Origin: Eukaryota sp. GEM-RC1
Taxonomy: Eukaryota
Direction: 5' to 3'
DNA: 64,000 nucleotides
NCBI GenBank assembly: GCA_040285855.1
Contig: JAUFOQ010000003.1
Coordinates: 1 to 64,000 of the forward strand
Below are positions 2,449 to 57,168 of the stretch, in pieces. Position 1 is the stretch's first letter, and every line of letters begins with the position of its first letter. The notes beneath the pieces are model-generated. The model searched no databases, was not told the origin of the DNA, and was given only the letters and a program-made list of their open reading frames with translations. Both the position numbers and the translations under genes were made by a program.

Positions 2449-5400
2449 ATGGGTTACACTGTGATTGTGGGTTTAAGCTTGATGAGTAGTATACTATTGG
2501 TGTGGTAATACTAATACACTTGGTATGTGTTTTGTACTTTTGTACTACATTGAGTCATGTTCATAGTAGTAGATAGATTGTACATGGTGATGTTGTTACT
2601 ATGACACAATTTTGATACAAACTTATAACCTTTAGAAGTTGAGTCTGACCAATTATCTTGTATATGTGTGACATAGAATTACACTGTTTTAACAATATGT
2701 TTATGTTTGGTAGTATGTGGTATTGTTAATGTTGTGTGATTCAAAATTTGTATAGTTTCAAGTGTCAATATTAAGATGTATGTAACATGTGTAGTCTAGT
2801 GATATGGTGTAGTAGTAGTACAGATGTTTTGTCATTAACATTTGTGATTTTGCATAGATTTATAAAACTATTGGTACAAGACATTGCTAAATATTTGACA
2901 TTATTTAAAATTTGTCAAACTCAAGTAACACTGTTTTATTCGATTTGATGTGAATATGAGTACTGTAAGTGGTGATTATGTATAGTGTATAGTATGTGTC
3001 ATGTATCAGTGTGTGACTTGTACTTACATGTATAAGTCTATTTGATATTGGTGTACTATTTATGTAATTGTGATTAAGACTGTGATTATCAGATAGATTT
3101 AAGTCCATCAATTACATTTGATTAACTCTTGTCATTTGATTTAGTACTATACTATGTATGTATGTAGTACTATGGTACATGTTTAGCTATATGTCTATCT
3201 CATCTACATCACTATCATTATGATTGTGAATGTGATGAAGGTATGTTGTGAATCACTCTAATCAATTTTGATTGGTTTAGTGATTGTGATCGGCAATTAC
3301 TAGTACAACTACACGCCAATGACTACTCTATACTACACTATTAGTGTTAGAGTCATGACACTACATGTACATAACAATTGATCTGATTTTATGAAACTCC
3401 AATTACTACAATTGATGATTGTCTAGTTGATTACAACCACTATACCAACTAATCCATGACACCCATGGACCAATCAAAATTGATTGAAAAATGTTTTCAC
3501 TTGGTATGCTGAAACTGCCTAAAATCAGCTCAAAATGACCCTCAATCCGTCTCTCTACGTGATTTTTTGAAAAGTGATTTTGATTGGTATACCAGATCTA
3601 CTAAGAATCGACTGAAAGTGACCCACAATCAACGAATTTACATGATTTTCGACTAACAATCAGATTTTGACTCCCATGTAACTCCTCACCAATCAAACTT
3701 GAACACTTCTAATTGCTTGTACAGGTTCCCCTACGGGGCCCTAGTACCCTATGTAGTACTCCAAGTTCCCAAAAAAGGCTCTAAAAAATGACCATTTGAA
3801 AGGTTATTGATTGTGTTTACAAAATATCTCTAACTCGAGCCGCCGCAAGTACATCACGCGGCTCCCGAGTTACAACAATTTTGTAAACGCAATCCGAACT
3901 AGACTTATCACCATCGTGCTAGGTACTACATAGTGTAGTACTCAAGTCCACTTCGACTTGGTGTAGGGTACTTCAAACGAGTTCCCCACAAACCCCTAAA
4001 ACATGATGATCCCATTTTACATTTGTCACAAGAAGAAACTTTTTATAAAAAGTTTAAACATTTCCCCCAATAGGAGGCTCTGAGGCCAGGTACTAAAAGG
4101 GCGACTACTCCTCTATCACCAATGCAGTGCACCTATTATCCAAAGGCACAGGGCCCTCAAACAATAAACACAACAACACAGCGAACGAAGATGTCTAGGC
4201 GGAATTGTCTAAGATCCATTGGTTACCCAACATCTCTCAGACTATCCTCGTGCAACCAGTTTTATGGCGTAGAAACACGGCAGATCGATAAATCAATCTA
4301 CAACTAACCCTATTACAGTCCCAGTACCATGCAGGACTTACTTAAAAATTAGTCAATGACTTTCACATAGTATCATTGACTTTGGTAGCATACAGTTGGT
4401 CGGTTACTGTTTGTAGTGTATACACAACATTCTGTGTTTGTACCACTTTATTGTTCCCATCAAATCCATCACCAGTTTCAGCACTAAGTACTACTGTGGT
4501 GTTGTCTTTAATGGGTAAAGTAGTCGTTGACTTGTCGATATAAAAATAATAAAGACTCGTCCTTTGACAATGTACTGCTACTACCGACAGTCAATGTCAA
4601 TTAAACTCAAAAAAATCTTAGTCGTTTTTACGAAATTTATAGTTTTCACTATTGTTTCCTACTAAGTGTATTCGAGTGTGGTACTGTCGTTTGATCCACG
4701 GCACAGACATGAACCATCAAGTACCATGGTTGAGACATGCACTAGTCACTTGACGTGCATTTGGACTGTCAGTATTAGATACCAACAGTCTTGGCTTATA
4801 GATATGGTTCTAAAACAGAACCACTATATACCTTAAGAGTATTAAGACTCTAGTTACTACACAGGAGTCTCTACTCTTTGGTGTGTCATCATTGGTCTTA
4901 GTCAATGATACTTCAGCCTTAGTCATTACAACCAAGGTCGAACCACCATTTATGCAACCAAGACCTAAACACACATGCATCTTATCATCTTAGCATTTTG
5001 AATAACCAAGAATGACAAAGACACATAGTCTCAACCATCTCAACCATTAGCTACTTAGATACATACATACTTATATACAATCTTGAGTAACTATGATTGG
5101 ACTCAACTATGACTAACTCATTGTATGTTCACCACACAACGAATCAGCCAACTCTTGTTGAGTTAGCATTGAACCCCTTCCCAAGTGGTCTAAAGAGAGA
5201 AGACATGTTTAACCACGCCTTCTCCAGAACTAGGAACATCAGATGAGCCTCAGTAACTCGTGTCAATACAACACTTGTACACGTACAGCACTGGTGTTCC
5301 ATATCTGAGTCGTCTACTCAGGTTCCACGCACCAGCAAGTCTTCATAGTTTCAATGATCAATGACTAGTCTTCGACCAATCACCAATCTCACTAGTGTGA

Positions 5401-5648
5401 TATTGGGGCGATGCAAGCACCAATCTCTAATCTTTATCGATTAGTTCTGCTGGACAATATGTGGATCTTTCTAGGCTGGATACTAACTTAGAGGCGTTCA
5501 GTTATAATCCAACATACGTAGCTTCGCAGCAATGCCTTTCAGACAACCGCATAAACCAACTGTATGATGCAAGGGTTCCTCTCGTACTGACTTGCATTAC
5601 TATTAGATCCACTAACAATCAGTAGGGTAAAACTAACCTGTCTCATGA

Positions 5649-6657
5649 CAGGTTAGTAGTTCTACTTGCTTTGTATTTTAGTTTCTTTAGATTCTATTTA
5701 CTTTATAATAAATACCTGTCTCACGAAGACAGAGGTCCACCATGGTCCGGGTGGTAACTGACTTCAACGGCTCTAAAGTATCATCGTGAGTCTGACTCCC
5801 TATGATCGTAAACATTTTTAAATACCAAGGAAGGTTTAAAAAGAAAAGCTAAAATTTCATTTCAGATTTGGTTTCTGAAAACAATTCTGAAATTTTTGGT
5901 AAGTTACAAAAGCGAAGCTGGAGAAGAGTTTTGCCTAAGTAACTATGTTTTAATCAATTTTATATATATGTCGTTTTCGTACAGAATTCAATTAATTATG
6001 AATTTCATTTATTAGTTAGTTTAGTTTTCTTTTAGAATTTTTTCAAATTTTAATAATAAATACCTGTCTCACGAAACATTGAAAAGTTTTTCTCACCAAT
6101 GAGAAAAAGAAAAAGTATGCTGATTTCTTCTTACCTTCAACAGGTTGTTTTTATGATACAACTGTTGTTGGTGGGAATAATCATTCACTTGAGAATGCAT
6201 TCAAGTCCCAGTTCTTGAGAAAAATGAACAATTATCAAGTTTTGATTGATGAAGGGCAAATATCTGAAGTTTGTCCGTTAATTTTTTCAAATTATGGTGG
6301 TATTGATCACAAGACTCTGAAAGTTCTAAGGAAATTGAAGTTCTCAACTCGTTCTTTTCAAATCATTAATTCTATTATTTTACGAGGCTCTTTGAAGTGT
6401 TGGTATGCGTACAGAAATACCAAGGAAGGTTTAAAAAGCAGTGCTTAAAATTTCATTTCAGATTTGGTTTCTGAAAACAATTCTGAAATTTTTGGTAAGT
6501 TACAAAAGCGAAGCTGGAGAAGAGTTTTGCCTAAGTAACTATGTTTTAATCAATTTTATATATATGTCGTTTTCGTACAGAATTCAATTAATTATGAATT
6601 TCATTTATTAGTTAGTTTAGTTTTCTTTTAGAATTTTTTCAAATTTTAATAATAAAT

Positions 6658-6670
<13 letters not shown>
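5649..6670 (+). mobile_element. Three tandem short retroposon inserts in 28S site B: 5649-5713, 5727-6061 (tRNA-like head plus LINE tail), 6075-6657 (5'-truncated REL C-terminus plus 3'UTR)
   Basis: The 13-mer ACCTGTCTCACGA occurs at 5636 (1 mismatch), 5714, 6062 and 6658. Each insert ends AATAAAT. The third encodes ...ADFFLPSTGCFYDTTVVGG...PLIFSNYGG, a REL endonuclease-like segment. Confidence 0.9.
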
Positions 6671-6697
<27 letters not shown>

Positions 6698-6799
6698 TTA
6701 ATGGGTGAACAATCCAACGCTTTGAGAATTCTGCTTCTCAATGATAGGAAGAGCCGACATCGAAGAATCAAAAAGCAACGTCGCTATGAACGCTTGGCT

Positions 6800-6842
<43 letters not shown>

Positions 6843-7196
6843 ATCTAAAAGATCTTTATAAATAAAGGATCGTTAGGCCACAATTTCTTGGTTTGTATTC
6901 GTACTGAAAATCAAAATCAAGTGAGCTTTTGCCCTTATACTCTACGTGAGATTTCTGTCCTCACTGAGCTCACCTTAGGACACCTCCGTTATTATTTTGG
7001 AGATGTGCCGCCCCAGCCAAACTCCCCATCTGATAATGTCCTCAAATCCAATCACACCGAAGTGCTTAGGTCTTGAAACAGGTAAACCTGTCTCGGATTA
7101 ATTGAGTGAGCAAACCAATGTCAAGAGTCAGGGTGTTTCATTGTCGACCGAAGTCTCCCCTGTACACTACACCTCCTGAATCAGTTCACAATATCA

Positions 7197-7234
<38 letters not shown>

Positions 7235-7240
7235 GATTTA

Positions 7241-7274
<34 letters not shown>

Positions 7275-7298
7275 CTAGTAGGTAGGGACAGTGCGAAC

Positions 7299-7331
<33 letters not shown>

Positions 7332-7332
7332 G

Positions 7333-7377
<45 letters not shown>

Positions 7378-8647
7378 TGTTTACACGTGCTTGATTGAAT
7401 CTCTTCACAATGACATTCAGAGCACTGAGCAGAAATCACTTTCTGTCATCACCGTTTCCGGCCATCAGAAAGCTTTGTTTCGATTAAACAGTCGGGTTCG
7501 CTTTGTCCGTTACAGTTCTAGGTTGATCTTTAATTGCACAGAAGTTATCCCAACAGGTCCAGCTTTGCCAACAGCCCAGAGTTGCCTCCAAGCCGTCGAC
7601 TCCACCTTCACTGCCAGGGCCTCCATACAAGACCCCTAGAGCCAATCCTTATCCCGAAGTTACGGATCTATTTTGCCGACTTCCCTTACCTACATTATGC
7701 TATTGACCAGAGGCTACACACCTTGGAGACCTGATGCGGTTATCGGTACGGACATTGATGAAGTACTCGCCCCTAGATTTTCAAGGGCCGTGAAAGATAC
7801 ACCAGACACTACAATTAAGCAGTGCTCTTTCCGCGTTACCTCCATTTCTCCAGCTAAGTTGATTCCATGGACGCTACACAGTTAATAAGAAAAGATAACT
7901 CTTCCTGGGATCCTTCCCGGCATCTCTAAGTTTGATTGTGTTACCACTGCACACCCATCAATGGTGCAGGAATATTAACCTGCTTCCCTTTCCACGTGAT
8001 AGACATAAATGCCTCTCTCCTGAGTTAACCCGCGTGTTAGGACCGACTAACCCATGGCAGAATACCTTTACCATGGAACCCTACTCCACTTCGGTCAACA
8101 AGATTCTAACTTGTTTATTTGCTACTACCACCAAGATCTGTACTGGAGGCTGCTCCAGTCCACCTCACGATGAACCTTCAACGCAACCCCCATTACCTTC
8201 CAACACATTGAGGCATCAAATACCTCAATGGACATGTATAGGTGGCATACTTTAGCGCCATCAATTTTCAGGGCTAGTTGATTCGGCAGGTAAGTTGTTA
8301 CACACTTCTGAGCGGATTCCGACTTCCATGGCCACCGTCCTGCTGTCTAAATGTATCAACACCTTTTTGGGGTCTAAATGAGTACACACTTAGGCACCTT
8401 AACGTGACGTCCGGTTCATCCCGCATCGCCAGTTCTGCTTACCAAAAATGGCCCACTAAGAACTCATATTCAAACGCCACAATCACAAAAGTATTGCAGA
8501 GTGTCTTGCCCATTTAAAGTTTGAGAATAGGCTAAGAGCATTGCGCCCCTAGTACCTCTAATCATTAGCTTTACCGGACAAAACTAACACGAGCTCCAGC
8601 TATCCTGGGGGAAACTTCGGGAGGAACCAGCTACTAGCCGCTTCGAT

Positions 8648-11600
8648 TTTTTTTTTTTCCCTTCATGACACAAACTTTCAAAAGACAAACTCGATCTCTT
8701 CGTTTGGCTTCTTCCTCTGAGAAGCTCCCTGACAAGCCCTCTGATCCTCCTTCGGGTGTTGCCAAGAAAAAACCTGCTTCTTCTTCTTCATCTAAAAAGA
8801 AGAAACCTCCTCCTTCTACTTCTTCTCTACGCGGAACGTCTTCCCCAGAGTGTGTTGTATCTTCTAACAAGCTTTTAGCAACCTCTCATGATGTTTCCGC
8901 AGTTTTAGAGGAAGGAAAAAATCTTCCTCATCTACCTCCTCTACTTCCTCTTCCTCCTTCATTCCTGTACTCAATTCATCCTCTACAAGACCTCCTCCAT
9001 CGGTTAGAAGCAAATCCTCTTCCATTTCTACAAATGTCTCTCCTGAAAAACACGCGTGTTTTGACACGTGTGTTGAAAATTTAAATTCTTCCTCCTTGTA
9101 TCCTGTTACTTGTCCTTCATGTGATTCCTCCTTAGGTACTAAGAAAGCCCTGTACCAACATTTCAATGGGGGCAAGTGCCCAAATGATTTTGTTCCGTCC
9201 TCTTCTTTTCTCTCTCCCTACAATCTTTCTTTCTGTCCTGTTGATGGTTGCTCAACCATCATCACAAAATCGAAAGCTGGTTTAACAGCTCATATTACCA
9301 AGATGCATGGTGATTTGCCTACTGGTGTTCAATTCGATTTTAAAAATTCTAGTTCTTTCCCTTCAAAATCTTTTGGTTCTAATTTGTTTGAATTTTCAGA
9401 TGAACTTTTTGTTTCTTTTTGTGAGCATATTTTTAAAACTGCTCCTTTTCTTTTCCAGTTAAGAAGTCCTTTTTGATGTACTTAACATCATTTGTTCTGC
9501 TCCTTTATCTCTTGAATCCAAAGCACGCTGGATTCTCCTTGCTCTTCCTTGTCTCTTTGCCAAGGGTAACTGTAATTCTAACTTCAAGAATTCAGTTTCT
9601 TTTTGTCGGCAGAGGATTTTTCTTTCTTAACCCCTCAAGTCTCTTCTTCTTCTAAGTCTTGTTCTTCTACTCGTTCCATGAAGTTGCTTCGTGATGGTGC
9701 TATTTCCAAAGCTTTTGATGTGCTGCTGAGAGACCCCTCTTCTCAGCTTTCTTTTCATCTGACACATTTCAAAAGTTGGTTGATCTTCATCCATCTGGTC
9801 CAAATCTGACCAATTTGGTTGAACCAGCTTCTTGTTCGTTTAGTTTTTCTGCTGAATCAGTGGTCTCTGCTATTCGCACTTACCCCAAAGGTTCTGCTGG
9901 TGGTCCTTTTGGCTGGACTTTGTCCCATTTTCCTGCCGTGTTGTCTGCTGATTTAAAAGAAATTTTGGTTTTTTGTTTAACAGCTTTTTAAACAATTCTT
10001 GCTCTTCTGTTCTGTCTTCTGTTTTGACTTCCTCTAAACTTCTTGCTCTTTCAAAACCCAATGGTGGGGTAAGACCTATTGCTGTATCTGAACTGTTTCC
10101 TCGGATTGTTGCTCGTTTCTTGGTTAAGAAGCTTAACTCCGATGTTTTCCGCAAATCTGGCCAGTTTGGTGTTTCATGCCCAAATGGTTCCGAAGCTATC
10201 GTCCATTATCTCCGTTCTTTGCGTTTCTCCCATCCTAGTTCTCGAATTATTTCTGTTGACATCAGGAATGCTTTTAACTGCGTTGACCGCATCCAGATGC
10301 TAAAGGCGGTCAAACAGTTTCCTGATCTACTTCCTTTTTTCTTTTGGAGTTATAGTACTCCTTCTGATTTGTTCTTTGACAATCATTGTCTTTCTTCTTC
10401 TCAAGGCGTCCGTCAAGGAGATCCTCTTGGTCCCTTTCTTTACTCTTTGACCACGCTTCCTGTTCTTTCCTGGCTTAATTCTCTTTCTGGTGTTTCTTGT
10501 GTAGCTTACCTGGATGACACTTATATTGTCATTGATTCTGATGTTGATTCTTCTGACCTTTTGAATCAGTTATCGCAAAAATATGCTGATCTTGGTCTGG
10601 ATCTTAATCTTGACAAGACCAAAATTTTTGCGACCTTTGACAATTTTGTTGCTTTAGGATCTCCAATTGGAGATTCTGCCTTTGAAAACGTTGGCCAAGA
10701 GTGCTTCCTCTTTCCTTAAAAACTATTTCAAAGTTGCCCGTTCAAGCTCAGCTTCTGTCGTACGTTACTGTATTAACTCAAAGTTGATGTATTGGGCTAG
10801 AACAGTGTCTGCTCCTTCTTCCAGGTTGCCCTCAAATTATTTTTCCAAGAACTTCTTTCTTGGATTTCTTCTCTTTACAGACTGCTATCCCTTATCCTGA
10901 TTTACTGTCCTTTCCTGTTTCTCTTGGTGGTTTTGGTTTGGCTGATCTTTCCTTAATTTGTGAGATTCCTAATGCCGTTTCTTTGTTTTCCACCCAGTTG
11001 TTATATTCCTTCCTTATATTCTTTTCCGTCTCCTATTGTAAAACTTACTTTGTCTACTTTAAAACCTATTCTTTTAGACTCAGATAATGCTTTTACCTAA
11101 GGGTGCTCCAGAAAAAACTAACTAGGATCTTCTTTTCAGATCGTGCTGAAATCTTTGCTTCTTCGTTGCCTTCAAATCTTCTTTCTGTCCATAATGCTTG
11201 CCAGTTACCTTTTTCTGGTCGTTTTCTTTCTCTTATTCCTTCTTGTCGAGACCTTACTCTTCAAGACTCCTCCCTCAGATGGATTTGCCGTCATCGTCTT
11301 CTTTGTAGTCAGGACATTGTTTCTTGTAATCTTTGCTCTTTTTCTTCGGTTGATGCTGGTCACAGCTCAAATTGTAACAGCTGTTCTCGTCATCGTACTT
11401 TTAGACATGACGAGATCAAGAATCCTACTGCCGAACACACTTCTTTTGCCGTTGAATTCAAATTGAAGCTTGGTGCCGCTTATGGGGTCATTGACTTGTT
11501 TGACCCCACATCTAAACTTGGTTTGGATGTTGCTGTGGTTGGGGGGAATGGTCATCTCCCTGACTATGATTTGGCCCATGCTGAATCACGTAAGTGGAAC

Positions 11601-11860
11601 AGGTATGGGAAGTTTAGACCTGGATTAATTTCTGATCTAGTTCCTTTGATTTTTTCAATTTTTGGTGGTTTGTTTGAGGAAACTATTGCTTCTTTGAAAT
11701 CTATTGGAGCTGATTCACTTATGGATCAGATTCATTGTATTTTAATTCGTAGAGGTGAGAGTATTTCTTGTTTGTATCAAACACTGGCTAAGCTTCGCTC
11801 AGCTGGTATTTAGTTTTAATTTCTTATATTTTGCTATTTGTATTGATTTACCTTAATAAA
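8648..11860 (+). mobile_element. Near full-length CRE-like (REL endonuclease) non-LTR retrotransposon inserted antisense in 28S site A (family A)
   Basis: 12-bp TSD AGCCGCTTCGAT at 8636-8647 and 11861-11872; the site is empty in unit 2 (23931-23942). Starts with a T-run, ends AATAAA. Confidence 0.93.
8665..11813 (+). pseudogene. Single-ORF retrotransposon protein (Zn fingers, RT, CCHC, REL endonuclease), frameshifted
   Basis: CPSC...H and CPVDGC...HITKMH fingers; SAGGPFGW, RPIAVSE, QFGV, DIRNAFN, GVRQGDPLGP, YLDD; CNLC...HSSNC...RHD...DVAVV...ESRKWNRY...PLIFSIFGG. Confidence 0.9.
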
Positions 11861-12383
11861 AGCCGCTTCGATGAGTCTTTCGCCCCTATACCCAAATTCG
11901 ACGAGTGATTTGCACGTCAACATCGCTGCGGACTTCCACCAGAATTTCTCCTGGCTTCATCCTACTCAGGCATAGTTCAGCGGCTTTCGGGTCGTATCCG
12001 TACTGCTCATACGCGGATCTCTTTACAAGAACCGGTTGGAGTTGCAAGCCGAAGCCATCACTCCATGAAATTACTTTCATTGCGCCCTCAGGTTTTTACA
12101 CCCTACGACTCGCAGTAAAGATACACTCCTTGGTCCGTGTTTCAAGACGGGACAGTTGGACCCTTTATATTGGAGTCTCGGCCGAAGCCGTATACCTGCC
12201 TCCAGAAGAATGTCAATGCCAAGGCTATAACACCACTAACAACCGAAGTCATCAATGGCTACCTTCCTCAACACATTCAAACTCCCAAAGGCACTCCAAT
12301 TCCGACAACCGAAGCTGTCTACTGTGGGGGGCCAACCGCTTATCCTATTAGTGATTTCAGGTACTTTTAACTCTCTCTTCAGA

Positions 12384-12414
<31 letters not shown>

Positions 12415-12926
12415 GAACTATCGGTCTCCAACTATATTTAGCTTTACGGGAATCTTACCCCGCATTTAACGCTGCATTTCCAAACAGCGCGACTCTCGGA
12501 ACACCAACGGTGATTCAGTCATTCGATGTCATGTACGGGATTTTCACCCTCCACGATACCCTTTTCCAAGGGTTTGTACACCGAGGACCAAACGCTGGAG
12601 TCCTTAGACCACATGTCGTCACAGCCAAAAGGCCATGAAGATTTAGTCTTGAGCTTTTTCCTGTTCGTTCGCCACTACTAAGGAAATCATAGTTATTTTC
12701 TTTTCCTCCCCTTATTGATATGCTTAAGTCCAGGGGGTACTCCTACTTGAAATCAGGCCATTTTTAATGGTTAGGACCGAGATCCTCAACTACACATCAG
12801 TAAATAATCAAGCTATTGCAAAAGTTGCCTTCAACAACAGTAATGACCATCAACAGTCAGTACAGAAGATGTATTTAAGATCAGAAGATATACTTCAAAC
12901 CCAATCAACCCGAAGGTTAAAGTGCA

Positions 12927-13090
12927 TACGACACTGATTCAAGTATACCCTAACAACGCCGAAGCATTGAAAGGGTGCCATGTGCGTTCAAAATTTCGAT
13001 GTTTCACAGGTTCTGCAATTCGCATTACGTATCGCATTTCGCTGCGTTCTTCATCGATCTTGGAGCCGAGACATCCATCACTAAGAGTCT
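12927..13090 (-). rRNA. 5.8S rRNA, unit 1
   Basis: GATGAAGAACGCAGCGAAATGCGATACGTAATGCGAATTGCAGAA motif on the minus strand. Confidence 0.93.
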
Positions 13091-13396: not shown

Positions 13397-13833
13397 TTCA
13401 GTGCATGCTGATGACATGCACTTACAAGTTATTCCTCGTTCAAGACCCATAATTGCAAGGGTCTATCCCAGTCAAGACAGACATTCTCAAGATTACCCAA
13501 ACTTTTCAGTTAAGGACAAACTCGTTGAATCTGCCATTGTAGCGCGCGTGCGGCCCAGAACATCTAAGGGCATCACAGACCTGTTATTGCCTAAACCTTC
13601 CTCTGTGTAAAACCACAGCAGTCTCGCTAAGAAGAACAACCTATCCGAAAATAAGCTATCCTATTTAGCGACTTAGATCTCGTTCGTTATCGGAATTAAC
13701 CAGACAAATCACTCCACCAACTAAGAACGGCCATGCGCCACTAACCGTAAGATCATGAAAGAGCTATCAATCTGTCAATCCTTATTACGTCTGGACCTGG
13801 TAAGTTTCTCCGTGTTGAGTCAGATTAAGCCGC

Positions 13834-13901
<68 letters not shown>

Positions 13902-14994
13902 GTTACCCAAGAACTTATGGTTTCCCATAAGGTGCTCAGAGGGTCGTATGTTAACGCCTCCAAATCCCTAGTCGGCATAGTTTATGGTTGAGACTACGAC
14001 GGTGTCTAATCGTCTTCGATCCCCCAACTTTCGACCTTGATTAATGAGAACATCTTTGGCAAATGCTTTCGCAGTAGTTAGTCATCCGGCAATCCAAGAA
14101 TTTCACCTCTGACACCGGAGTACTAATGCCCCCAACTGTCCCTATTAATCATTACTCTAGTCCTCAAAACCAATAAAACAGAACCAAAGTCCTATTCTAT
14201 TATTCCATGCTAATGTATTCAATTGCATAAAGCCTGCTTTGAACACTCTAATTTTTTCAAAGTAAACGGTCTAAATTCAATAACCACCGCCGAAGCAAAT
14301 GATCATTGTCCTTAGACTTAAGAGCTTGCCATCCAACAGGTTAGACCCATCGGACAACAAACTCTGACTTTCAACTACGGACGATTTAAACGCAGCAATT
14401 TTAAGATACACTACTAGAGCTGGAATTACCGCGGCTGCTGGCACCAGACTTGCCCTCTAGTAGCTCCTCGTTAAAGGTTTTAAGTTGTACTCATTCCAAT
14501 TACGAACTCAAAAGAGCCCAGTATTGTTATTTTTTGTCACTACCTCCTCGTGTTGAGATTGGGTAATTTTCGCGCCTGCTGCCTTCCTTGGATGTGGTAG
14601 CCGTTTCTCAGGCTCCCTCTCCGGAATCAAACCCTAATTCCCCGTTACCCGTCATAACCACCGTAAGCCACTACCTTACGGTTTAGTTGATAGGGCAGTG
14701 ATTTAAGCGATATGTCGCCGTCCGAAGACATGCGATCAGCATAGTTATTATGAATCACCAAAGACCTGTTGCCAGGATTGGTTTTGTATCTAATAAATGC
14801 ATCACTGTTGCCAATGATTGAGTGCATGTATTAGCTCTAGATTTACTACGGTTATCCAAGTAGTAAGGCACTATCAAATAAACTATAACTGATTTATTGA
14901 GCCATTCGCAGTTTCGGAGAAAACTCCTGAACTTAGACATGCATGGCTTAATCTTTGAGACAAGCATATGCCTACTGGCAGGATCAACCAGGTA
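13212..14994 (-). rRNA. 18S rRNA, unit 1
   Basis: Starts TACCTGGTTGATCCTGCCAGTAG, ends GTAGGTGAACCTGCGGATGGATCATT; contains GTGCCAGCAGCCGCGGTAA. Confidence 0.97.
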
Positions 14995-19792: not shown

Positions 19793-21550
19793 GAACTAGA
19801 CTTATCACCATCGTGCTAGGTACTACATAGTGTAGTACTCAAGTCCACTTCGACTTGGTGTAGGGTACTTCAAACGAGTTCCCCACAAACCCCTAAAACA
19901 TGATGATCCCATTTTACATTTGTCACAAGAAGAAACTTTTTATAAAAAAGTTTAAACATTTCCCCCCAATAGGAGGCTCTGAGGCCAGGTACTAAAAGGG
20001 CGACTACTCCTCTATCACCAATGCAGTGCACCTATTATCCAAAGGCACAGGGCCCTCAAACAATAAACACAACAACACAGCGAACGAAGATGTCTAAGCG
20101 GAATTGTCTAAGATCCATTGGTTACCCAACATCTCTCAGACTATCCTCGTGCAACCAGTTTTATGGCGTAGAAACACGGCAGATCGATAAATCAATCTAC
20201 AACTAACCCTATTACAGTCCCAGTACCATGCAGGACTTACTTAAAAATTAGTCAATGACTTTCACATAGTATCATTGACTTTGGTAGCATACAGTTGGTC
20301 GGTTACTGTTTGTAGTGTATACACAACATTCTGTGTTTGTACCACTTTATTGTTCCCATCAAATCCATCACCAGTTTCAGCACTAAGTACTACTGTGGTG
20401 TTGTCTTTAATGGGTAAAGTAGTCGTTGACTTGTCGATATAAAAATAATAAAGACTCGTCCTTTGACAATGTACTGCTACTACCGACAGTCAATGTCAAT
20501 TAAACTCAAAAAAATCTTAGTCGTTTTTACGAAATTTATAGTTTTCACTATTGTTTCCTACTAAGTGTATTCGAGTGTGGTACTGTCGTTTGATCCACGG
20601 CACAGACATGAACCATCAAGTACCATGGTTGAGACATGCACTAGTCACTTGGACGTGCATTTGGACTGTCAGTATTAGATACCAACAGTCTTGGCTTATA
20701 GATATGGTTCTAAAACAGAACCACTATATACCTTAAGAGTATTAAGACTCTAGTTACTACACAGGAGTCTCTACTCTTTGGTGTGTCATCATTGGTCTTA
20801 GTCAATGATACTTCAGCCTTAGTCATTACAACCAAGGTCGAACCACCATTTATGCAACCAAGACCTAAACACACATGCATCTTATCATCTTAGCATTTTG
20901 AATAACCAAGAATGACAAAGACACATAGTCTCAACCATCTCAACCATTAGCTACTTAGATACATACATACTTATATACAATCTTGAGCAACTATGATTGG
21001 ACTCAACTATGACTAACTCATTGTATGTTCACCACACAACGAATCAGCCAACTCTTGTTGAGTTAGCATTGAACCCCTTCCCAAGTGGTCCAATTAAAGA
21101 GAGAAGGCATGTTTAACCACGCCTTCTCCAGAACTAGGAACATCAGATGAGCCTCAGTAACTCGTGTCAATACAACACTTGTACACGTACAGCACTGCGT
21201 TCCATATCTGAGTCGTCTACTCAGGTTCCACGCACCAGCAAGTCTTCATAGTTTCAATGATCAATGACTAGTCTTCGACCAATCACCAATCTCACTAGTG
21301 TGATATTGGGGCGATGCAAGCACCACCCTAATCTTTATCGATTAGTTCTGCTGGACAATATGTGGATCTTTCTAGGCTGGATACTAACTTAGAGGCGTTC
21401 AGTTATAATCCAACATACGTAGCTTCGCAGCAATGCCTTTTCAGACAACCGCATAAACCAACTGTATGATGCAAGGGTTCCTCTCGTACTGACTTGCATT
21501 ACTATTAGATCCACTAACAATCAGTAGGGTAAAACTAACCTGTCTCACGA

Positions 21551-21949
21551 CAGGTTAGTAGTTCTGTATTTTAGTTTCTTTAGATTCTATTTACATAATA
21601 AATACCTGTCTCACGAAGACAGAGGTCCACCATGGTCCGGGTGGTAACCGACTTCAACGGCCTAGCATCATCGTGAGTTCGACTCCCTATGATCGTAAAC
21701 ATTTTTAAATACCAAGGAAGGTTTAAAAAAGAAAAGCCAAAATTTCATTTCAGATTTGGTTTCTGAAAACAATTCTGAAATTTTTGGTAAGTTACAAAAG
21801 CGAAGCTGGAGAAGAGTTTTGCCTAAGTAACTATGTTTTAATCAATTTTATATATATGTCGTTTTCGTACAGAATTCAATTAATTATGAATTTCATTTAT
21901 TAGTTAGTTTAGTTTTCTTTTAGAATTTTTTCAAATTTTAATAATAAAT

Positions 21950-21962
<13 letters not shown>
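21551..21962 (+). mobile_element. Two tandem inserts at 28S site B: 21551-21603 and 21617-21949 (tRNA-like head plus LINE tail)
   Basis: TSD ACCTGTCTCACGA at 21538, 21604 and 21950; inserts end AATAAAT. Confidence 0.9.
21626..21706 (+). ncRNA. tRNA-derived Pol III-type head (A box, B box, T5)
   Basis: TGGTCCGGGTGG (21633-21644), GAGTTCGACTC (21675-21685), CCG-acTTCaa-CGG anticodon-like loop, TTTTT (21702-21706). No canonical acceptor stem. Confidence 0.6.
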
Positions 21963-21989
<27 letters not shown>

Positions 21990-22091
21990 TTAATGGGTGA
22001 ACAATCCAACGCTTTGAGAATTCTGCTTCTCAATGATAGGAAGAGCCGACATCGAAGAATCAAAAAGCAACGTCGCTATGAACGCTTGGCT

Positions 22092-22134
<43 letters not shown>

Positions 22135-22488
22135 ATCTAAAAGATCTTTATAAATAAAGGATCGTTAGGCCACAATTTCTTGGTTTGTATTCGTACTGAA
22201 AATCAAAATCAAGTGAGCTTTTGCCCTTATACTCTACGTGAGATTTCTGTCCTCACTGAGCTCACCTTAGGACACCTCCGTTATTATTTTGGAGATGTGC
22301 CGCCCCAGCCAAACTCCCCATCTGATAATGTCCTCAAATCCAATCACACCGAAGTGCTTAGGTCTTGAAACAGGTAAACCTGTCTCGGATTAATTGAGTG
22401 AGCAAACCAATGTCAAGAGTCAGGGTGTTTCATTGTCGACCGAAGTCTCCCCTGTACACTACACCTCCTGAATCAGTTCACAATATCA

Positions 22489-22526
<38 letters not shown>

Positions 22527-22532
22527 GATTTA

Positions 22533-22566
<34 letters not shown>

Positions 22567-22590
22567 CTAGTAGGTAGGGACAGTGCGAAC

Positions 22591-22623
<33 letters not shown>

Positions 22624-22624
22624 G

Positions 22625-22669
<45 letters not shown>

Positions 22670-24453
22670 TGTTTACCCGTGCTTGATTGAATCTCTTCAC
22701 AATGACATTCAGAGCACTGAGCAGAAATCACTTTCTGTCATCACCGTTTCCGGCCATCAGAAAGCTTTGTTTCGATTAAACAGTCGGGTTCGCTTTGTCC
22801 GTTACAGTTCTAGGTTGATCTTTAATTGCACAGAAGTTATCCCAACAGGTCCAGCTTTGCCAACAGCCCAGAGTTGCCTCCAAGCCGTCGACTCCACCTT
22901 CACTGCCAGGGCCTCCATACAAGACCCCTAGAGCCAATCCTTATCCCGAAGTTACGGATCTATTTTGCCGACTTCCCTTACCTACATTATGCTATTGACC
23001 AGAGGCTACACACCTTGGAGACCTGATGCGGTTATCGGTACGGACATTGATGAAGTACTCGCCCCTAGATTTTCAAGGGCCGTGAAAGATACACCAGACA
23101 CTACAATTAAGCAGTGCTCTTTCCGCGTTACCTCCATTTCTCCAGCTAAGCTGATTCCATGGACGCTACACAGTTAATAAGAAAAGATAACTCTTCCTGG
23201 GATCCTTCCCGGCATCTCTAAGTTTGATTGTGTTACCACTGCACACCCATCAATGGTGCAGGAATATTAACCTGCTTCCCTTTCCACGTGATAGGACATA
23301 AATGCCCTCTCCTAAGAGTTAACCCGCGTGTTAGGACCGACTAACCCATGGCAGAATACCTTTACCATGGAACCCTACTCCACTTCGGTCAACAAGATTC
23401 TAACTTGTTTATTTGCTACTACCACCAAGATCTGTACTGGAGGCTGCTCCAGTCCACCTCACGATGAACCTTCAACGCAACCCCCACACCTCCCTACACA
23501 TTGAGGCATCAAATACCTCAATGGACATGTATAGGTGGCATACTTTAGCGCCATCCATTTTCAGGGCTAATACATTTGGCAGGTAAGTTGTTACACACTT
23601 CTGAGCGGATTCCGACTTCCATGGCCACCGTCCTGCTGTCTAAATGTATCAACACCTTTTGTGGTTTCTAGGTGAACGTGCACATTAGGCACCTTAACGT
23701 GACGTCCGGTTCATCCCGCATCGCCAGTTCTGCTTACCAAAAATGGCCCACTAAGAACTCCAATTCAAACGCCACAATCACAAAAGTATTGCAGAGTGTC
23801 TTGCCCATTTAAAGTTTGAGAATAGGCTAAGAGCATTGCGCCCCTAGTACCTCTAATCATTAGCTTTACCGGACAAAACTAACACGAGCTCCAGCTATCC
23901 TGGGGGAAACTTCGGGAGGAACCAGCTACTAGCCGCTTCGATGAGTCTTTCGCCCCTATACCCAAATTCGACGAGTGATTTGCACGTCAACATCGCTGCG
24001 GACTTCCACCAGAATTTCTCCTGGCTTCATCCTACTCAGGCATAGTTCAGCGGCTTTCGGGTCGTATCCGTACTGCTCATACGCGGATCTCTTTACAAGA
24101 ACCGGTTGGAGTTGCAAGCCGAAGCCATCACTCCATGAAATTACTTTCATTGCGCCCTCAGGTTTTTACACCCTACGACTCGCAGTAAAGATACACTCCT
24201 TGGTCCGTGTTTCAAGACGGGACAGTTGGACCCTTTATATTGGAGTCTCGGCCGAAGCCGTATACCTGCCTCCAGAAGAATGTCAATGCCAAGGCTATAA
24301 CACCACTAACAACCGAAGTCATCAATGGCTACCTTCCTCAACACATTCAAACTCCCAAAGGCACTCCAATTCCGACAACCGAAGCTGTCTACTGTGGGGG
24401 GCCAACCGCTTATCCTATTAGTGATTTCAGGTACTTTTAACTCTCTCTTCAGA

Positions 24454-24484
<31 letters not shown>

Positions 24485-24996
24485 GAACTATCGGTCTCCA
24501 ACTATATTTAGCTTTACGGGAATCTTACCCCGCATTTAACGCTGCATTTCCAAACAGCGCGACTCTCGGAACACCAACGGTGATTCAGTCATTCGATGTC
24601 ATGTACGGGATTTTCACCCTCCACGATACCCTTTTCCAAGGGTTTGTACACCGAGGACCAAACGCTGGAGTCCTTAGACCACATGTCGTCACAGCCAAAA
24701 GGCCATGAAGATTTAGTCTTGAGCTTTTTCCTGTTCGTTCGCCACTACTAAGGAAATCATAGTTATTTTCTTTTCCTCCCCTTATTGATATGCTTAAGTC
24801 CAGGGGGTACTCCTACTTGAAATCAGGCCATTTTTAATGGTTAGGACCGAGATCCTCAACTACACATCAGTAAATAATCAAGCTATTGCAAAAGTTGCCT
24901 TCAACAACAGTAATGACCATCAACAGTCAGTACAGAAGATGTATTTAAGATCAGAAGATATACTTCAAACCCAATCAACCCGAAGGTTAAAGTGCA

Positions 24997-34490: not shown

Positions 34491-35689
34491 GTCAGACATG
34501 TCATGGTTCTTGAAGAGAATCCAGAAAGGAAAGTCCAGGATTCAAAGGACGATATGAAGACAGATGCAGATGAAATCATACTTGGAAAATACAGCCACTC
34601 CCTGAAAAAAAATGCAAAAAATACAGAAATTACAGAAATACTGAAAAATACACTTAATACAGAAAATTACAAAATAACTCGACCTAAGACAACTTTCGCA
34701 AAAGTATGGTGAGAACTTTTTCAGTTTTAAATTAACAATGACCATTATTATATGAGTTTCACAGTCAAACTAAACATAACAAAACATCAAAAATACCTGA
34801 ACAAATATCAAGCCATTATATAGTTTGCCGTCTTTTTTGAGCAGCTGCCGTTCCAAAACACTTTTCAATCATTCCAAAGATTGAGATTCCCCAAAAACAT
34901 CAAGAGAATTGGTACCTTTTATCGTCAGACGAGTTTATGACAATAATATACAATATATTCATCAAGAAGACCTAATGTGCTTGCAATTTATCTTCAAATA
35001 AAACACAGTTGCATATGATATCATTGTCATCATTAAAAACTGCTTCGTTTTCGAGAAGAAGTACATCAACACGAGATCTTTGACCACCCTATATGTGCAT
35101 ACTCATACCTCTATTGGTAGTTAAAAAAAGTTAAACACTAGGGTTACCTGTTTTGGAAAGTTGATGTATATTAAATTGCAGGAGTAGAGAACTATCCAAT
35201 GTTGGATGTGAAGAACATTTCGGCCTTTTTGACTCTCAATGGTCCCGATAAGACCAATTGGTGTCTAGTATGTATCAAAATTACGACCAACACGTAGAAA
35301 TAGAGAAAATTGAACAGTACATCTTCATACAAAAATTGTTTTGGTACCATTTTATCCATAAAAATACAAAAAATACAGTATTTATCGAGCCTGAGAAAAT
35401 ACAAAAAATACAAACAATTCAAAAAAAATACAAGTATTTGTATTTTCCAAGTATGGATGAAATGGAAGTGAAGACCTCATTCAAGGAAATATAGTATCAG
35501 AATCAGAGACACGTCTCTAAAGGTTTGGTAAGAAACAATTCTGCTGGTGAGTTTTAAGCCGCCACCACAACAAATACATTGGTCTCTCTACTATTGTTGC
35601 AACTTTACATTTATTGTCCGACCTCACAGTATACAGTTCAATATCATAAATGAATTTCTGTTGATGTTTCTAATGTTTATATATGTAAT

Positions 35690-36690
35690 TCAATCAGTGG
35701 TATTATGGTATCGTTTGTTCTTTTCCCACAATCTCTCTTTTTGATTGACTTTTTTATTCGGAGCTACGGTTGTAGTTCATCTTTGTTTTTACCATCTGGA
35801 AATCCTATTTTCTCCACAACAGGTGTTAAGCAAGGAGATCCAATTTCTCCTTTCTTATATTCACTGGGTTGTCTCTCGATCTTAGAACATTGCAAGTCAT
35901 TAGACTTAGAGATTTTTTCGTATCTCAATGATATATATATTCTCAGTAAAAAATCTCTTGATCCCAATGAGCTTGTTGCTTCAAAGTTTGAATTGATGGG
36001 TCTCTCATTGAATCGAGTTAAAACCCAAATTTATCCTAGTTCATACTCGTGATTCTCATTTTAATGCATTAGAATCTTAAAATGGTTCTAATGATGGTCA
36101 ACGTTGTTTTTTGCAAAATTATATTGATTCCGAAGTTAGACCTTTACTTAATAGTCTTTTCCAGTTGCCGATTCAAACGCAGCTTTTTTCAAAAATGCCT
36201 TCAATTGTGTTATTGAACGGTTCCTAACCCATACCGATAACCTCCGTGTGGAACCGTGGAACATCACTAAGAGACATGATGCAGTTAAATTTTTTTTGAA
36301 TTCATTTAAAAATTTTGTAGTTGAAAATGAAGTTTCCTTAGGATTGAATAGCTTCAAGTTGGATTTATTTGACCCAAAAACTAGGATAGCTTTTGATATT
36401 ACGGTTGTAGGAGGTTTTGGCAATCCTTGGATGCTTATTCCACAGCGTACTGCAAAAAATTTCTAAATATTCAGTTTTGAAGGACATCAATTTGATTTCA
36501 GACAATATTCCTTTGGTTTTTAATATTCATGGGGGTTTTATTCGAAAACCGTTGAATTTTTCAAACAATTTGGTTGGTTAGAGTTGGGACCTTCTATTAG
36601 TTGTATTATTTTGAAAGGTAAGTTGAGATATCATAAGGCTCTGAATCTTATTTTGGGAAAGATAGATCAGAGTAGACGTTTCTGGTAGTA
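35690..36690 (+). mobile_element. Degenerate CRE-like non-LTR fragment (RT C-terminus joined to REL)
   Basis: GVKQGDPISPFLYSL, YLND, KRHD...DLFDPKTRIAFDITVVGG. Confidence 0.85.
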
Positions 36691-36749
36691 GTGATATTAT
36701 AAGTTATTAGTTTCTTCAAAAAAAGATATTTTTCATTATAATTAAATAA

Positions 36750-37410
36750 AAGTCGTTTTGGGATCTGCTGTTGGTGATCCTTCTTTCGAAAAACGCTGAC
36801 TGCAGAACAAGTGTTCTGATCTTTTCCACTTTCTAAATCTCTTGGTGATCTGCCTGTTCAAGCAAAGTTGATCTTGTTGAGGTACTGCATTAACTCTAAA
36901 TTGATGTATTGGGCACGAACTGTTGCTCCCAGTGCATCTAGATATCCCAAAAGAATAAAGTCTTTTTAGTTCTGAGTTCCAGTCTTTTCTTTGTTCTATT
37001 CTGGATTGCAAACTTGCTTTTCCAGAGTTAATTTCTTTCCGATTTCTCATGGTTGTCTTGGTCTTTCGGATCTTTCTATTTTTTTTTAAAAAAAGAAATC
37101 CCTAATATTCTGATACAGTCACTGCTTTACCTAAAATAGCTCAAGGAAAATTGACTAAGTCTTTCTTTTCTTCTCGTTAGGAATTGTTTGTTGAGAAACT
37201 TTCCCATCATTTGCTTTCTGTCCATGAAGCTTGCCAACTGCCTGTTTCTGGTCGTTTTCTTTCCATCATTCCTGTTTCTGAGCCTCTTTGTCTGCAGGAT
37301 TCTACCTTACAGTGGATCTGCTCTCAGCGACTTCTTGAAGCTGAAGCCATTAGTTCTTGTAATCCTTGCCACTTTAAAGATTCTTCCAGTTGATTCTGGT
37401 CTAACTGTAA
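36750..37410 (+). mobile_element. Family A-like non-LTR fragment
   Basis: Nucleotide similarity to 10655-11380; HEACQLPVSGRFLS...LQDSTLQWIC. Confidence 0.85.
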
Positions 37411-40400
37411 TGACGTGATCCAAAACTACTTAAGTAGAAGGCCCTTGGCTGGAAACTTGGTGGGCAAAGACTTCGACCTTATACTCAGAGCAATGTCAGA
37501 GAAGTTATTAATAAATTGGGACTGCGACTTCAAGAAAAATCAAATGAAAAAAGGTATCTATAATCAAGAAAAAAGAGATTCTGGGTAGCAAAAATTACTT
37601 TTTCTACTGAATAGAATCACTAAATGACAGATGTTTCATAAAAGATGTTAACGAAAAAACAAACACGGCAAAAATATATTATAACATTTCGTGGAGTAAC
37701 AGTTCATTTTTAAGTAGAAAGTACACATAAAACAAAGAAAGATTTACCAAATTCTCAAAGTGGTCCAAATTGCTGAAAATTTCAAATTATGCAGCTTTGG
37801 ACAACCATTGTTTTTAAAAAATCAGCAACATTCGGAGACAATTTTAGATAGCTCGTAAAGATCTACAAAATGGCTAGGAATGACATAGTTATAAAAATAC
37901 TTCAATTTTACATTACTTTCAATATGTTTAATTCTTTGAACCCAAGGTGGCAAAAACTCGGCAGATAGAAAGATCAGAAATTAAAAAATGAGTAATAACT
38001 AGAGACAAGATTGACGCGAATCCAATAAAGAAGAGATCTCTTTTAAAGAAAGTAAAAGAGGCATTAAGGACGTGACATCCACGGGTTATTACTTGAAAGT
38101 ATAGGAAGCACCATCACGTGATCATCAAATCAATACAAAAGAGTATTCAGAGCTCGAGATTGGGAAATCCTTGCCACGTGTAAATTCTATGACACGTGGC
38201 AAAAAGAAGACGATGGAGAGGAATTAAGGACAAGAGTTAGAGAAGAAGAAACGCCATTACAAGAAGAAGCTTTGGTATATTGATTGACTTTTATATCAGT
38301 CAACTTCTGACCCCTTGTTACGTCGGGGTAAGATGTCAAGGTAGGACATTAAGGTAAAAGTAAATGATCAAGAAACTCATCACTTCAACACCTTTGCTAC
38401 CACTTTACATGAGTAGTTTCTACATCAACTTAGACAGCTTAATACAACACCTTCAAGGAACCACCCCATGTTGAATTTTACTGTATTTGTTCTTGTTTGA
38501 AGATGACCTGAGGCAAATCAACAATTCTTCTTCTGTGTCACATTTCTCTTTGCTGTTAAGTGATTTTGATGCCGACTGGAGTCATGCGCCTCAAGTTTCC
38601 AAATTTCGAGCAGATGAACTAAAGCCTAAACGGATAAGCCCTCTGTTGAACCCAAAACCATAGTCCTTGGGTTCTACCGATCTCCAATGTCTCGTCATTC
38701 ACAACTGTCTCATCCAGATCTACCAGCTCAAAAACTCAATCCCATCTCCCTCCAATCTGATCTCAGATCTTTGAATAGTCATTCTATTTCTCATCCCCGA
38801 TCACTTTATTCTTTTCGCAAAAGAAGAAATACACAATTCATTTCCTTCTAATAAATCTGTTTACTTCATGATACCCTGACTTATACTTTGTTATACATAG
38901 TCAGAAATATCGACGTTACATTGACTGTAATCTCACTGTACAGTGTATAATGCCACAACCACAAAGTTCCATTCCGTTATGACATGGAAGTCACGGCGGT
39001 CATGGTGCAACACTAATAGGAAGTCCAACTGTGTTTTTTCAAAAAGTAAGAATAAACTTCATCTATCAATGTCATATAAGTGATTACAATAGTATTGGGG
39101 GTTTTCTAGTACACCTTTAATTGATTGAAACTTTTATCGATATCGGGATGGACAAACACATTGATGTCTTGAAATGCTATACATGTAAGTCTCTAACGAA
39201 AAGGGGGAGATGATGAAAGTATGAAATGAAAACAGCAGATGATAACCAATGTTGGCCCTTTCTGGTCTAATGGATACGTCAGTGTTTTTTTTGGGGAGAA
39301 GTCAGCACAACAACTTCCAAATGATGCATTATAGGACATTCGTTGGTGAAACAAGAACTGTAGCGCTACATATAATAGGAAAAGAGGAGTATCTATAGCT
39401 AAATCGCGCCTTGAAGCGTTGGTATTAAGCTCTTTGACGAAGTGTTTCCGTCATGTAAAATGAGGTTCTACTCATTGTCTTGAAGATTATATTGGTGGTT
39501 TCTTGTCAGAAACGGATGTAATGTGGGTTGGTAGAAGACTTGGACATCTGATCAAGTACTCAACAATGCTTCCCACACTTCTAGAATCCCTCACCTAAGA
39601 ATTCGTCGAGTTCTTATCGTCTAGTACCTCGAAGACCGCCCCAGCTGTTTATCTTTCATCCACATCAACTCTCTTCCGATTCATGTCTCTCATTGTCTCT
39701 CTCCTTCTGGTGATCTTTGATACCTGAACACAGTGGTATGATGCTCCGTTCCTCTGTCCTTTGTTGCTTGTTATTGCAGCCGGTCTCTTCTCATTCTTTT
39801 TTTTAAGAATGAGAAGAGACCTGATACCAGATCAAAAACCCGTGTTTCTGATGCATACGACTTCTTCTTTCTTTACTTTCTCTCTTCTCTAGGTCACGTG
39901 ATCATTTGTGATGTATTAGCAGTTCATGAAACTGTTGTTCTAAAGTTCATGATTGGTATTGATTTCTCCTTGTCTAATCTTTCTCACCTCCTTTTCCCTT
40001 CCTTTTCACTTCACTGATCAACGTTTGAATCATTGACTTTATCAAGTTCGATCTTTCTCAAATTTTAATATACTGAATTGAATCTGGTCTTTTCTGATTT
40101 TCAAAAAAGTTGAATAACTCGACTCAAAATTCGTTTTGTTTCTAGTTTAATAATTCAGTTTCAAGATCTTTATAGATCCTAATTTTTACATTTGTCAGTG
40201 AATGTGTACTTCTTTTATTATTAAGTACTACTTTTGTAGTACTAAGGTTATGCAACTTTTCAAAAAAAAAGTTCAATTCCAGCCTTTTGATTTCTTTTAT
40301 TCATCTCAGATGCTATTTAAAGAACTCACACTTACTAGAGTTAAAAACGAAGAATTTTTAACGGTAGTACTTTGTTCTTTTCAAGATGATGAAAGTAAGT

Positions 40401-40479
40401 TTTATCATTGATATGTGAAAAACAGAAAATTGAGAATTATTTAAAAAACTAAGCAAGAAAACACGACTTCTCTTAAAAT

Positions 40480-41101
40480 CGGCTCAGAAAGGGTTGGGAA
40501 ATGGATCAATGTCAAAACGACCAGTACCTTTGGAATCCTTGCTTTGAACTTGGAATCAAACACCAAGCTTCAATTTAATGAGAATGGATTTTAAAGTAGA
40601 CAAAGTAAGTTTTACAATAGGTGACGGAAAAGAATACAAGGAAGGAATAACAAAATTAGAAGAAACCATTGAAACAGCATTTGGAATTTCACAAATTAAT
40701 GAAAGATCAGATAAACCAAAACCACCAAGAGAAAGCAGTTCTTGGAAAAATCATTTGAGAGGTAACCTAGATGAAGTAGCAGAAACAGTTCTAGCTCAAT
40801 ACATCCACTTGGAGTTGATACAATAACGTACAAACAGAAGCTGAGCTTGTACGGGCAACTTTGAAATAACTTTGAACAAAGGAAAGAGAAACGTGCATTT
40901 CTCTTTCAGCCAACGTTTATCAAAAGCAGAATCTCCAATTGGAGATCCTACAGCTACAAAATTACGAAAGGTCGCATAAGTTTTAGTATTGTCTAGAATT
41001 AGATGCAGACCAGGATCAGCATATTTCTGTGATAAACTGATCACGTGATTCAAAAGTTCAACAGAATCAATGACAAACAATGTAAGTGTCATCAAGGTAA
41101 G
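40480..41101 (-). mobile_element. Family A non-LTR fragment
   Basis: SQKYAD...VGSPIGDSAF...RYCINSK matches 10500-11100. Confidence 0.85.
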
Positions 41102-41760: not shown

Positions 41761-41879
41761 AATAATCATAAAAATCAGTCATGTATAACACTAATGCATC
41801 GATATCCTTCTGCACAAGTAAAGTATGTAAACGTTCCTCTAAGAGCATCTTATTTCTGTGATTACTGATTCAAAAGGAC

Positions 41880-43400: not shown

Positions 43401-43419
43401 ATTGGACGAATACAACCGT

Positions 43420-45201: not shown

Positions 45202-45299
45202 TGTTAGCCAAAGGTATAAGTATGGTTACGTAGTCAGTTATTTCACTTTATAAACACCTTTTACCTTCCCCCATTCTTTACCCATACCTTCTGGTATCA
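45202..45299 (+). repeat. 5' LTR
   Basis: TGTTAGCC...GGTATCA, identical to 51905-52002. Confidence 0.95.
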
Positions 45300-57139: not shown

Positions 57140-57168
57140 GTTGAAATCCTTTTGAACTGTATCTTTTC

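Follow-up and report, generated by a model that had tools for sequence, protein, structure and literature searches.

Two neighbouring 28S rRNA genes of Eukaryota sp. GEM-RC1 are interrupted at one point by runs of short inserts, each bordered by the same 13-bp segment of the gene itself. What placed these inserts, and did the same agent return repeatedly to one nucleotide? We addressed these questions in the window, i.e., the whole 64,000-nt stretch of DNA analysed here.

Results

Two rDNA units at the edge of an array

The window opens with the edge of a minus-strand rDNA array, which takes up its first half, contains two full units and a third spacer and ends at 32762. 5S is linked within the spacer, with 5S rRNA genes at 2329, 18217 and 30254, and a copy of a spacer segment (83–84%) lies outside the array at 44098–44821. 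Also in the window are a Ty3/gypsy-like LTR element whose 100-bp terminal repeats are identical and whose gag/pol ORFs are long (45201–52003) and, at 57145–62124, ORFs with an Ulp1/C48 protease domain and a family B polymerase exonuclease fragment, possibly a DNA element. Part of the latter interval, which has no Pfam match, resembles TnpB/Fanzor in its motifs. The RT of the element inside unit 1 shows 99–100% identity to proteins that NCBI lists under Eukaryota sp. GEM-RC1, which is described as a free-living member of the metamonad genus Skoliomonas from a soda lake (PMC11316075). The two 28S genes are:

5226..13087, minus strand: unit 1 28S gene, interrupted by the stack of inserts and by element A
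21128..24830, minus strand: unit 2 28S gene, interrupted by the stack

A 13-bp segment of the 28S gene borders every insert

A preliminary description held that the segment separates three head-to-tail inserts in unit 1 and two in unit 2, that all of these end in AATAAAT, and that the stack lies about 680 nt downstream of the R2 site. All three points were confirmed. With up to one mismatch allowed, the 13-mer has seven matches in the window, against 0.10 expected, and none of 100 shuffles reached seven. Only two of the seven are expected from the two 28S genes, leaving five extra; four copies are in unit 1 and three in unit 2. The segment had been described as standing at all junctions, which is exactly true of six copies (ACCTGTCTCACGA at 5714, 6062 and 6658 in unit 1, and at 21538, 21604 and 21950 in unit 2), but the copy at 5636 has one mismatch (C>T). 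The inserts between the 13-mers are 65, 335 and 583 bp long in unit 1 and 53 and 333 bp in unit 2, AATAAAT is the 3' end of 5/5, and native 28S sequence lies on both outer sides of the stack. The R2 nick and the nearer end of the duplication are 680 nt apart, with the stack downstream, and the R2 site itself is intact and uninserted in both units (7345 and 22637). In the forward orientation of the window, the features of the two stacks are:

5636..5648, plus strand: target duplication copy 1, unit 1 (C>T mismatch); 13-mer search
5649..5713, plus strand: insert i1, unit 1, 65 bp; 9-nt inverted target, then AT-rich, weakly B-like tail, AATAAAT
5714..5726, plus strand: target duplication copy 2, unit 1; 13-mer search
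5727..5819, plus strand: head of i2, unit 1; 6-nt inverted target, tRNA-like A/B-box segment, TTTTT end
5820..6061, plus strand: tail of i2, unit 1; last ~40 codons of family B ORF and 3' UTR
6062..6074, plus strand: target duplication copy 3, unit 1; 13-mer search
6075..6657, plus strand: insert i3, 583 bp; 5'-truncated family B, with RLE C-terminus and ~120-nt 3' UTR
6658..6670, plus strand: target duplication copy 4, unit 1, then native 28S; 13-mer search
21538..21550, plus strand: target duplication copy 1, unit 2; 13-mer search
21551..21603, plus strand: insert i1, unit 2, 53 bp; 5' junction as in unit 1, two short gaps
21604..21616, plus strand: target duplication copy 2, unit 2; 13-mer search
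21617..21706, plus strand: head of i2, unit 2; A-box-like motif at 21633, B box 44 nt on, TTTTT at 21702–21706
21707..21949, plus strand: family B tail of i2, unit 2; P0130 residues 743–784, 95%
21950..21962, plus strand: target duplication copy 3, unit 2; 13-mer search

The target is a near-palindrome, which we take to be 28S helix 93 (about E. coli 2593–2605, including A2602) and to overlap the I-CreI homing site.

Because the first two inserts are common to both units and have identical 5' junctions there, we count three independent insertions, not five; the earlier proposal of repeated hits at one nucleotide therefore stands with the smaller number. The inserts have three different 5' junctions and a single 3' boundary. 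A single insertion followed by tandem duplication was ruled out, since the 5' ends of the three inserts differ. Nor does the stack have the character of a group I intron: Rfam gave no intron match in the window, and a target duplication is present. The orientation, described as antisense throughout, is established by coding sequence in the 335/333-bp and 583-bp inserts and is presumed in the 65/53-bp insert.

The inserts derive in part from an RLE-type element, family B

We searched 1.84 billion proteins for homologues of family B by profile-free HMMER, using as query the ORF of an older relic in the window (below). There were nine matching proteins, all from GEM-RC1, TZLM1-RC or TZLM3-RCL, and the best cluster of matches includes P0130, a GEM-RC1 protein of 784 residues with an RT and a restriction-like endonuclease (RLE). 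P0121 and P0129 are other family B copies in the protein set, and P0124, also from GEM-RC1, is a sister RLE protein (43% identical). Positions 6083–6535 of i3 encode residues 634–784 of P0130 (97%) on the plus strand, i.e., antisense to the rRNA.

P0130 starts near the RT and has RT motifs, a CCHC at 587 and the motifs KHD, ADF, YDTT and RKMNNY, the last four of which we take to be of RLE type. The best seven PDB matches to its predicted fold (mean pLDDT 77.6) were all R2 structures (E = 1e-21 to 8e-18), with a match over the whole length at a TM score of 0.62–0.63 and ~15% structural identity. R2 proteins were also the best PDB matches by sequence, and a search of the ESM Atlas gave only unnamed RT clusters. 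These results place family B among the RLE-type non-LTR elements, with i3 as a 5'-truncated copy. The marks of TPRT are present in the stack, i.e., a fixed 3' end, variable 5' truncation and a target duplication.

A longer relic of family B had been placed at 41102–41760; it exists, but with other limits and on the minus strand:

41117–41842, minus strand: older family B relic outside the rDNA; P0130 residues 474–719, 87%

The relic is identical to the 583-bp insert at 234/282 positions and is embedded in fragments of family A (see below). It has lost its 3' end and is therefore uninformative on targeting. Beside the array is a patchwork of decayed RLE elements of several further families (35600–37500, 40300–44100 and 54575–55394), two of which keep AATAAA-type 3' ends outside the rDNA.

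A sister family occupies a different 28S site

The second element in unit 1 is:

8648..11860, plus strand: family A, near full length, 3.2 kb; zinc finger, RT, CCHC, RLE; frameshifted

It lies antisense in the 28S gene within a 12-bp duplication (8636–8647 and 11861–11872), 1,289 nt upstream of the R2 nick, at a site that is empty in unit 2 and is apparently a second unreported 28S target. The family A ORF matched PF00078 (E = 5e-20) and has one zinc-finger-like motif; Pfam found no APE family on family A ORFs. At the 5' end a T12 run is followed within 20 nt by an ATG, and neither a long 5' UTR nor a ribozyme was evident there. On other contigs of GEM-RC1, P0003 consists of the A C-terminus followed by internal A, and P0004 of antisense 28S followed by internal A; with P0007 they hint at tandem A copies or a further A copy in 28S, although P0003 and P0004 are spliced gene models, from which junctions cannot be fixed.

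In an RT tree of 42 rows (none dropped, several composition-biased, and no named RLE reference among them), A, B and their TZLM relatives formed a single six-row Skoliomonas clade (100/98), and a 100/100 branch split A and B from eight APE-bearing proteins. The RTs of A and B are about 44% identical, and family B is, as originally claimed, distinct from the other rDNA element. The R1 clade, with which a comparison had been suggested, does not accommodate B, which has no APE and stands apart from the APE elements at that 100/100 branch. The RT motifs may be CRE-like; the tree held no named CRE protein.

Two of the 5' junctions carry inverted copies of the target

At its 5' junction i1 has a 9-nt inverted copy of the target (at least 9 nt was found in 11/60000 random 20-mers), and the junction forms an 11-bp hairpin (0/200 shuffles were as stable). 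The corresponding copy in i2 is 6 nt (at least 6 nt in 879/60000 random 20-mers), and i3 has none. Snap-back junctions, containing opposite-strand rDNA, and junctions with extra template are recognised classes of R2 5' junction (PMC11204384).

For the AT-rich tail of i1, the best non-self match in the window was the B tail, and this was weak (87/2000 and 38/2000 shuffles); the corresponding figures with the family A tail were 170/2000 and 409/2000. Judged from these matches, i1 may be an older B variant or may come from a sister family. The earlier claim of site specificity for a second family holds as regards repeated insertion at one nucleotide with a regenerated 13-bp duplication, but only two of the three inserts are clearly B.

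Insert i2 joins a weakly tRNA-like head to a family B tail

The final ~243 bp of i2 is the B tail, beginning inside the ORF (P0130 residues 743–784, 95%) and identical between units at 241/243 positions. Preceding it is a GC-richer head of ~90 nt, found nowhere else in the window beyond the two i2 copies, which ends in TTTTT precisely at the start of the B sequence. In unit 2 the head contains an A-box-like and a B-box motif 44 nt apart, a spacing which, counted by eye, equals that of the planarian tRNA-Glu in S6 of PMC4640811; in unit 1 the B box has two changes. The tRNA-like character was weak by other measures. ARAGORN found no tRNA in the head at default settings and labelled it tRNA-Glu in relaxed mode, at a threshold giving 44 matches in the window. 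Two preset A/B-box patterns had zero matches anywhere in the window, while a loose pattern, defined post hoc, matched 161/200000 shuffled heads and 11 places in the window and failed in unit 1. Rfam gave no tRNA or meaningful match for the head; it had ten weak phage matches, no tRNA among them; it folded no better than shuffles; and inspection by eye revealed no HDV-like or hammerhead ribozyme.

Taken as a whole, this analysis suggests that the head is probably a tRNA-derived Pol III transcript, caught via a template jump. Jumps of R2 onto tRNA have been reported (PMC3414825). A tentative alternative, affecting the reading of i2 only, is that i2 represents a true non-autonomous family (either a tRNA-derived SINE, or an internally deleted B headed by B's own 5' end) that borrows the B protein and site. 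A head joined to a LINE-derived 3' tail is the classic SINE layout, and this tail is common to i2 and its partner LINE, family B, with 241/243 identity between the units; moreover, an antisense element cannot exploit Pol I read-through, so that an internal promoter would help, and R1 tandem arrays are known to contain interspersed SIDEs (PMC3414825). However, i2 amounts to one independent copy, i.e., two copies with a shared junction, its head being absent elsewhere in the window, and the TTTTT at the head/tail junction, together with the ten runs of at least four T in the 333-nt i2 of unit 2, would likely halt Pol III. A captured transcript remains the reading that we prefer.

The stack and the reliability of the sequence

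Could the stack be partly a product of assembly, with reads from rDNA units bearing single inserts merged into one? A merged consensus could produce the stack, but not the shared site; stacking would then fall and site specificity would stand. The rDNA is a collapsed repeat, the 18S copies of units 1 and 2 differ at 91 positions, most of them in one 570-nt block, and element A is frameshifted. Given these 91 substitutions and the frameshift, the local sequence quality is doubtful, and small differences between units 1 and 2 may be errors. Against a merger, the full 13-mer is present at every junction, the two units have the same two-insert order, unit 2 is ~11 kb away from unique sequence at the array edge, and tandem arrays of this form are known biology. 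We therefore regard an assembly product as highly improbable.

The middle of the unit 1 18S (13690–14270) differs from unit 2 at ~80 positions, while the remainder is near-identical; it resembles the 18S of a different eukaryote inserted into the sequence, or a chimera. CpG decay was rejected as the source of the differences between units, as it is not dominant (24/144 substitutions in five compared regions). A search of sequencing runs returned 23, all metatranscriptomes, with a best share of 0.23 and none with half the words; these matches are probably conserved rRNA and weigh neither for nor against the stack.

Order of addition

It had been proposed that inserts were added sequentially on the 3' side. 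This is the more parsimonious order, and we lean towards it: unit 1 has its extra insert on the 3' side of the elements, and i2 and i3 resemble present B more closely than i1 does, both of which fit. It is, however, indistinguishable from loss of i3 in unit 2 via the near-identical tails of i2 and i3 (231/237). A different order is conceivable, if rather doubtful, in which unit 2 lost i3 by recombination between those tails, or in which i1 is the youngest insert, added 5' by a sister family. Drosophila R1 adds copies on the 5' side (PMC2718515), the N-termini of A-clade R2 and of R9 bind upstream of the nick (PMC11204384), and the 43%-identical P0124 shows that GEM-RC1 has a sister RLE. The gradient points the other way, since present B is matched closely by i2 and i3 and least well by i1, as would be expected if i1 were the oldest and i3 the youngest.

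A model for repeated insertion

Our preferred explanation, which we hold to be probable, is that the inserts were placed successively at one 28S nucleotide by the RT and RLE of family B, acting site-specifically and in antisense orientation. The 13-mer is likely to be the target site of a site-specific retrotransposon, with three independent events at the one locus. The B protein would nick the rRNA-sense strand at the 3' edge of the 13-mer and prime cDNA synthesis on its own 3' UTR, and the opposite strand would be cut 13 nt away; these proposed steps of cutting and priming follow the established TPRT mechanism. The 13-mer would thereby be restored on both sides, leaving the site open to further insertion. 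Because the target is a natural rRNA hairpin, the 13-nt single-stranded 3' overhang left by the staggered cut could fold back and prime itself, which would give the 9-nt and 6-nt inverted target copies of i1 and i2. With i2, the RT would have abandoned a truncated B template and continued on a small tRNA-like Pol III transcript, entering it at its oligo-U end. The order would be i1, i2, i3, each added on the element's 3' side, although we are less sure of this, and the unit carrying i1 and i2 would have been duplicated before i3 arrived. Units with inserts would yield no functional 28S rRNA.

The sister family lends support to this model, being likewise antisense in 28S with a short (12-bp) duplication. 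Weighing against site specificity are the small number of independent events (three, at one locus), the presence of one B relic outside the rDNA, and the weak resemblance of i1 to B. These points bear on the possibility that B is not sequence-specific, and that the hairpin-forming 28S segment is a hot spot for breaks, or the site of some other nuclease, at which mixed cDNA was captured. The near-palindromic target, the possible origin of i1 in another family, the copies of B and related families outside the rDNA in the window, and the group I-like intron that adjoins the same boundary in the unrelated contig L001 would all suit break capture. However, three identical 13-bp duplications would be unexpected from it, as would element 3' ends that are intact and share a boundary, and B encodes an endonuclease of its own. 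We consider break capture very unlikely, and retain site-specific insertion by B.

A more ambitious scheme, unlikely to hold in all its parts, would be that a metamonad RLE lineage gave rise to two families, each with a new antisense 28S target, and that B targets helix 93 at the peptidyl-transferase centre, reads its own 3'-side flank (the opposite of R1 and A-clade R2), integrates via overhang fold-back and mobilises a tRNA-headed partner, making a protist rDNA LINE/SINE pair.

Discussion

The B site appears to be a previously unreported target in an unstudied lineage. No element at this site was found in the literature searched; one may be listed in Repbase, in the first papers on R9 and the R1 clade, or in the supplement to Fell et al. 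2025, which includes CRE, NeSL and Hero elements (PMC13580325). Stacking with a regenerated duplication (R1), antisense 28S targeting by RLE elements, template jumps and snap-backs are each already known individually. Animals supply nearly all of the well-described non-LTR elements specific to rDNA; in the entries covered, a 2024 catalogue lists for protists only an undefined Trypanosoma element and a Physarum intron (PMC10946416, Table 1).

A metagenome scan for foreign sequence at the B site gave two loci, neither of them a retroelement, in data where rDNA assembles poorly, so that absence means little. One, L001:1-2787, is an LSU fragment with ~seven group I-like introns in 2.8 kb, one of which adjoins precisely the predicted first-nick boundary of family B; the other, L002, is a decayed rDNA fragment with a short deletion.

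If our interpretation is correct, two metamonad sister families at different 28S sites would show that rDNA was adopted independently in a deep-branching lineage, and the A/B pair, with RTs about 44% identical, would be a natural system in which to study how RLE elements change target. Since the target is conserved across eukaryotes, the B protein, if it works, would be a candidate tool for RNA-guided insertion of genes into rDNA away from the R2 site.

Comparison with known systems

Anopheles RT1 and RT2, of the R1 clade, reportedly insert ~630 bp 3' of the R1 site, i.e., in the same broad region as B, with a 17-bp duplication that is said to hold TNTCCCTNT and GGGATAACT. These elements have an APE, not an RLE. 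The motif of this duplication maps 143 nt from the B site, and the two sites probably differ. The letters of the B target recur in an Anopheles primer (PMC2034484).

The CRE clade (SLACS, CZAR, CRE1/2) resembles the present elements in its single ORF with zinc finger, RT and RLE, its A-rich tail, its TSD and its protist hosts (PMC12278014), a likeness judged from the layout of element A and the C-terminus of B, in features common to other RLE clades. The targets described for the CRE clade and MoTeR are, by contrast, spliced-leader genes or telomere repeats, not 28S.

The planarian elements LIN9_SM, LIN24_SM and LIN26_SM, which are NeSL-related, are closer in this respect, having an RLE and lying antisense in 28S at non-R2 sites; they end in poly-T tails (PMC4640811). 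The LIN9 flank maps 158 nt from the B site, and those of LIN24/26 just upstream of the R2 site.

R9 reportedly makes a 126-bp duplication, compared with 13 bp for B. Otherwise B is like R2, R8 and R9 in its RT-CCHC-RLE protein, its rDNA target and its snap-back and extra-template junctions (PMC5035012, PMC13580325). It differs from R2 in having another site, an antisense orientation and a non-animal host.

R1 has an APE as its endonuclease, whereas B has an RLE, is antisense, lies 680 nt downstream of the R2 site and may add copies on the 3' side. R1 lies near the R2 site in the rRNA sense, with addition on the 5' side (PMC2718515). As regards the stack itself, MoTeR1/2 similarly form head-to-tail arrays with a non-autonomous partner (PMC7367193), and the tandem R1 arrays of Drosophila 28S genes are alike in having head-to-tail elements at one 28S site, a regenerated duplication between them (a 14-bp TSD for R1, PMC2718515; 13 bp here) and non-autonomous inserts intermixed (PMC3414825).
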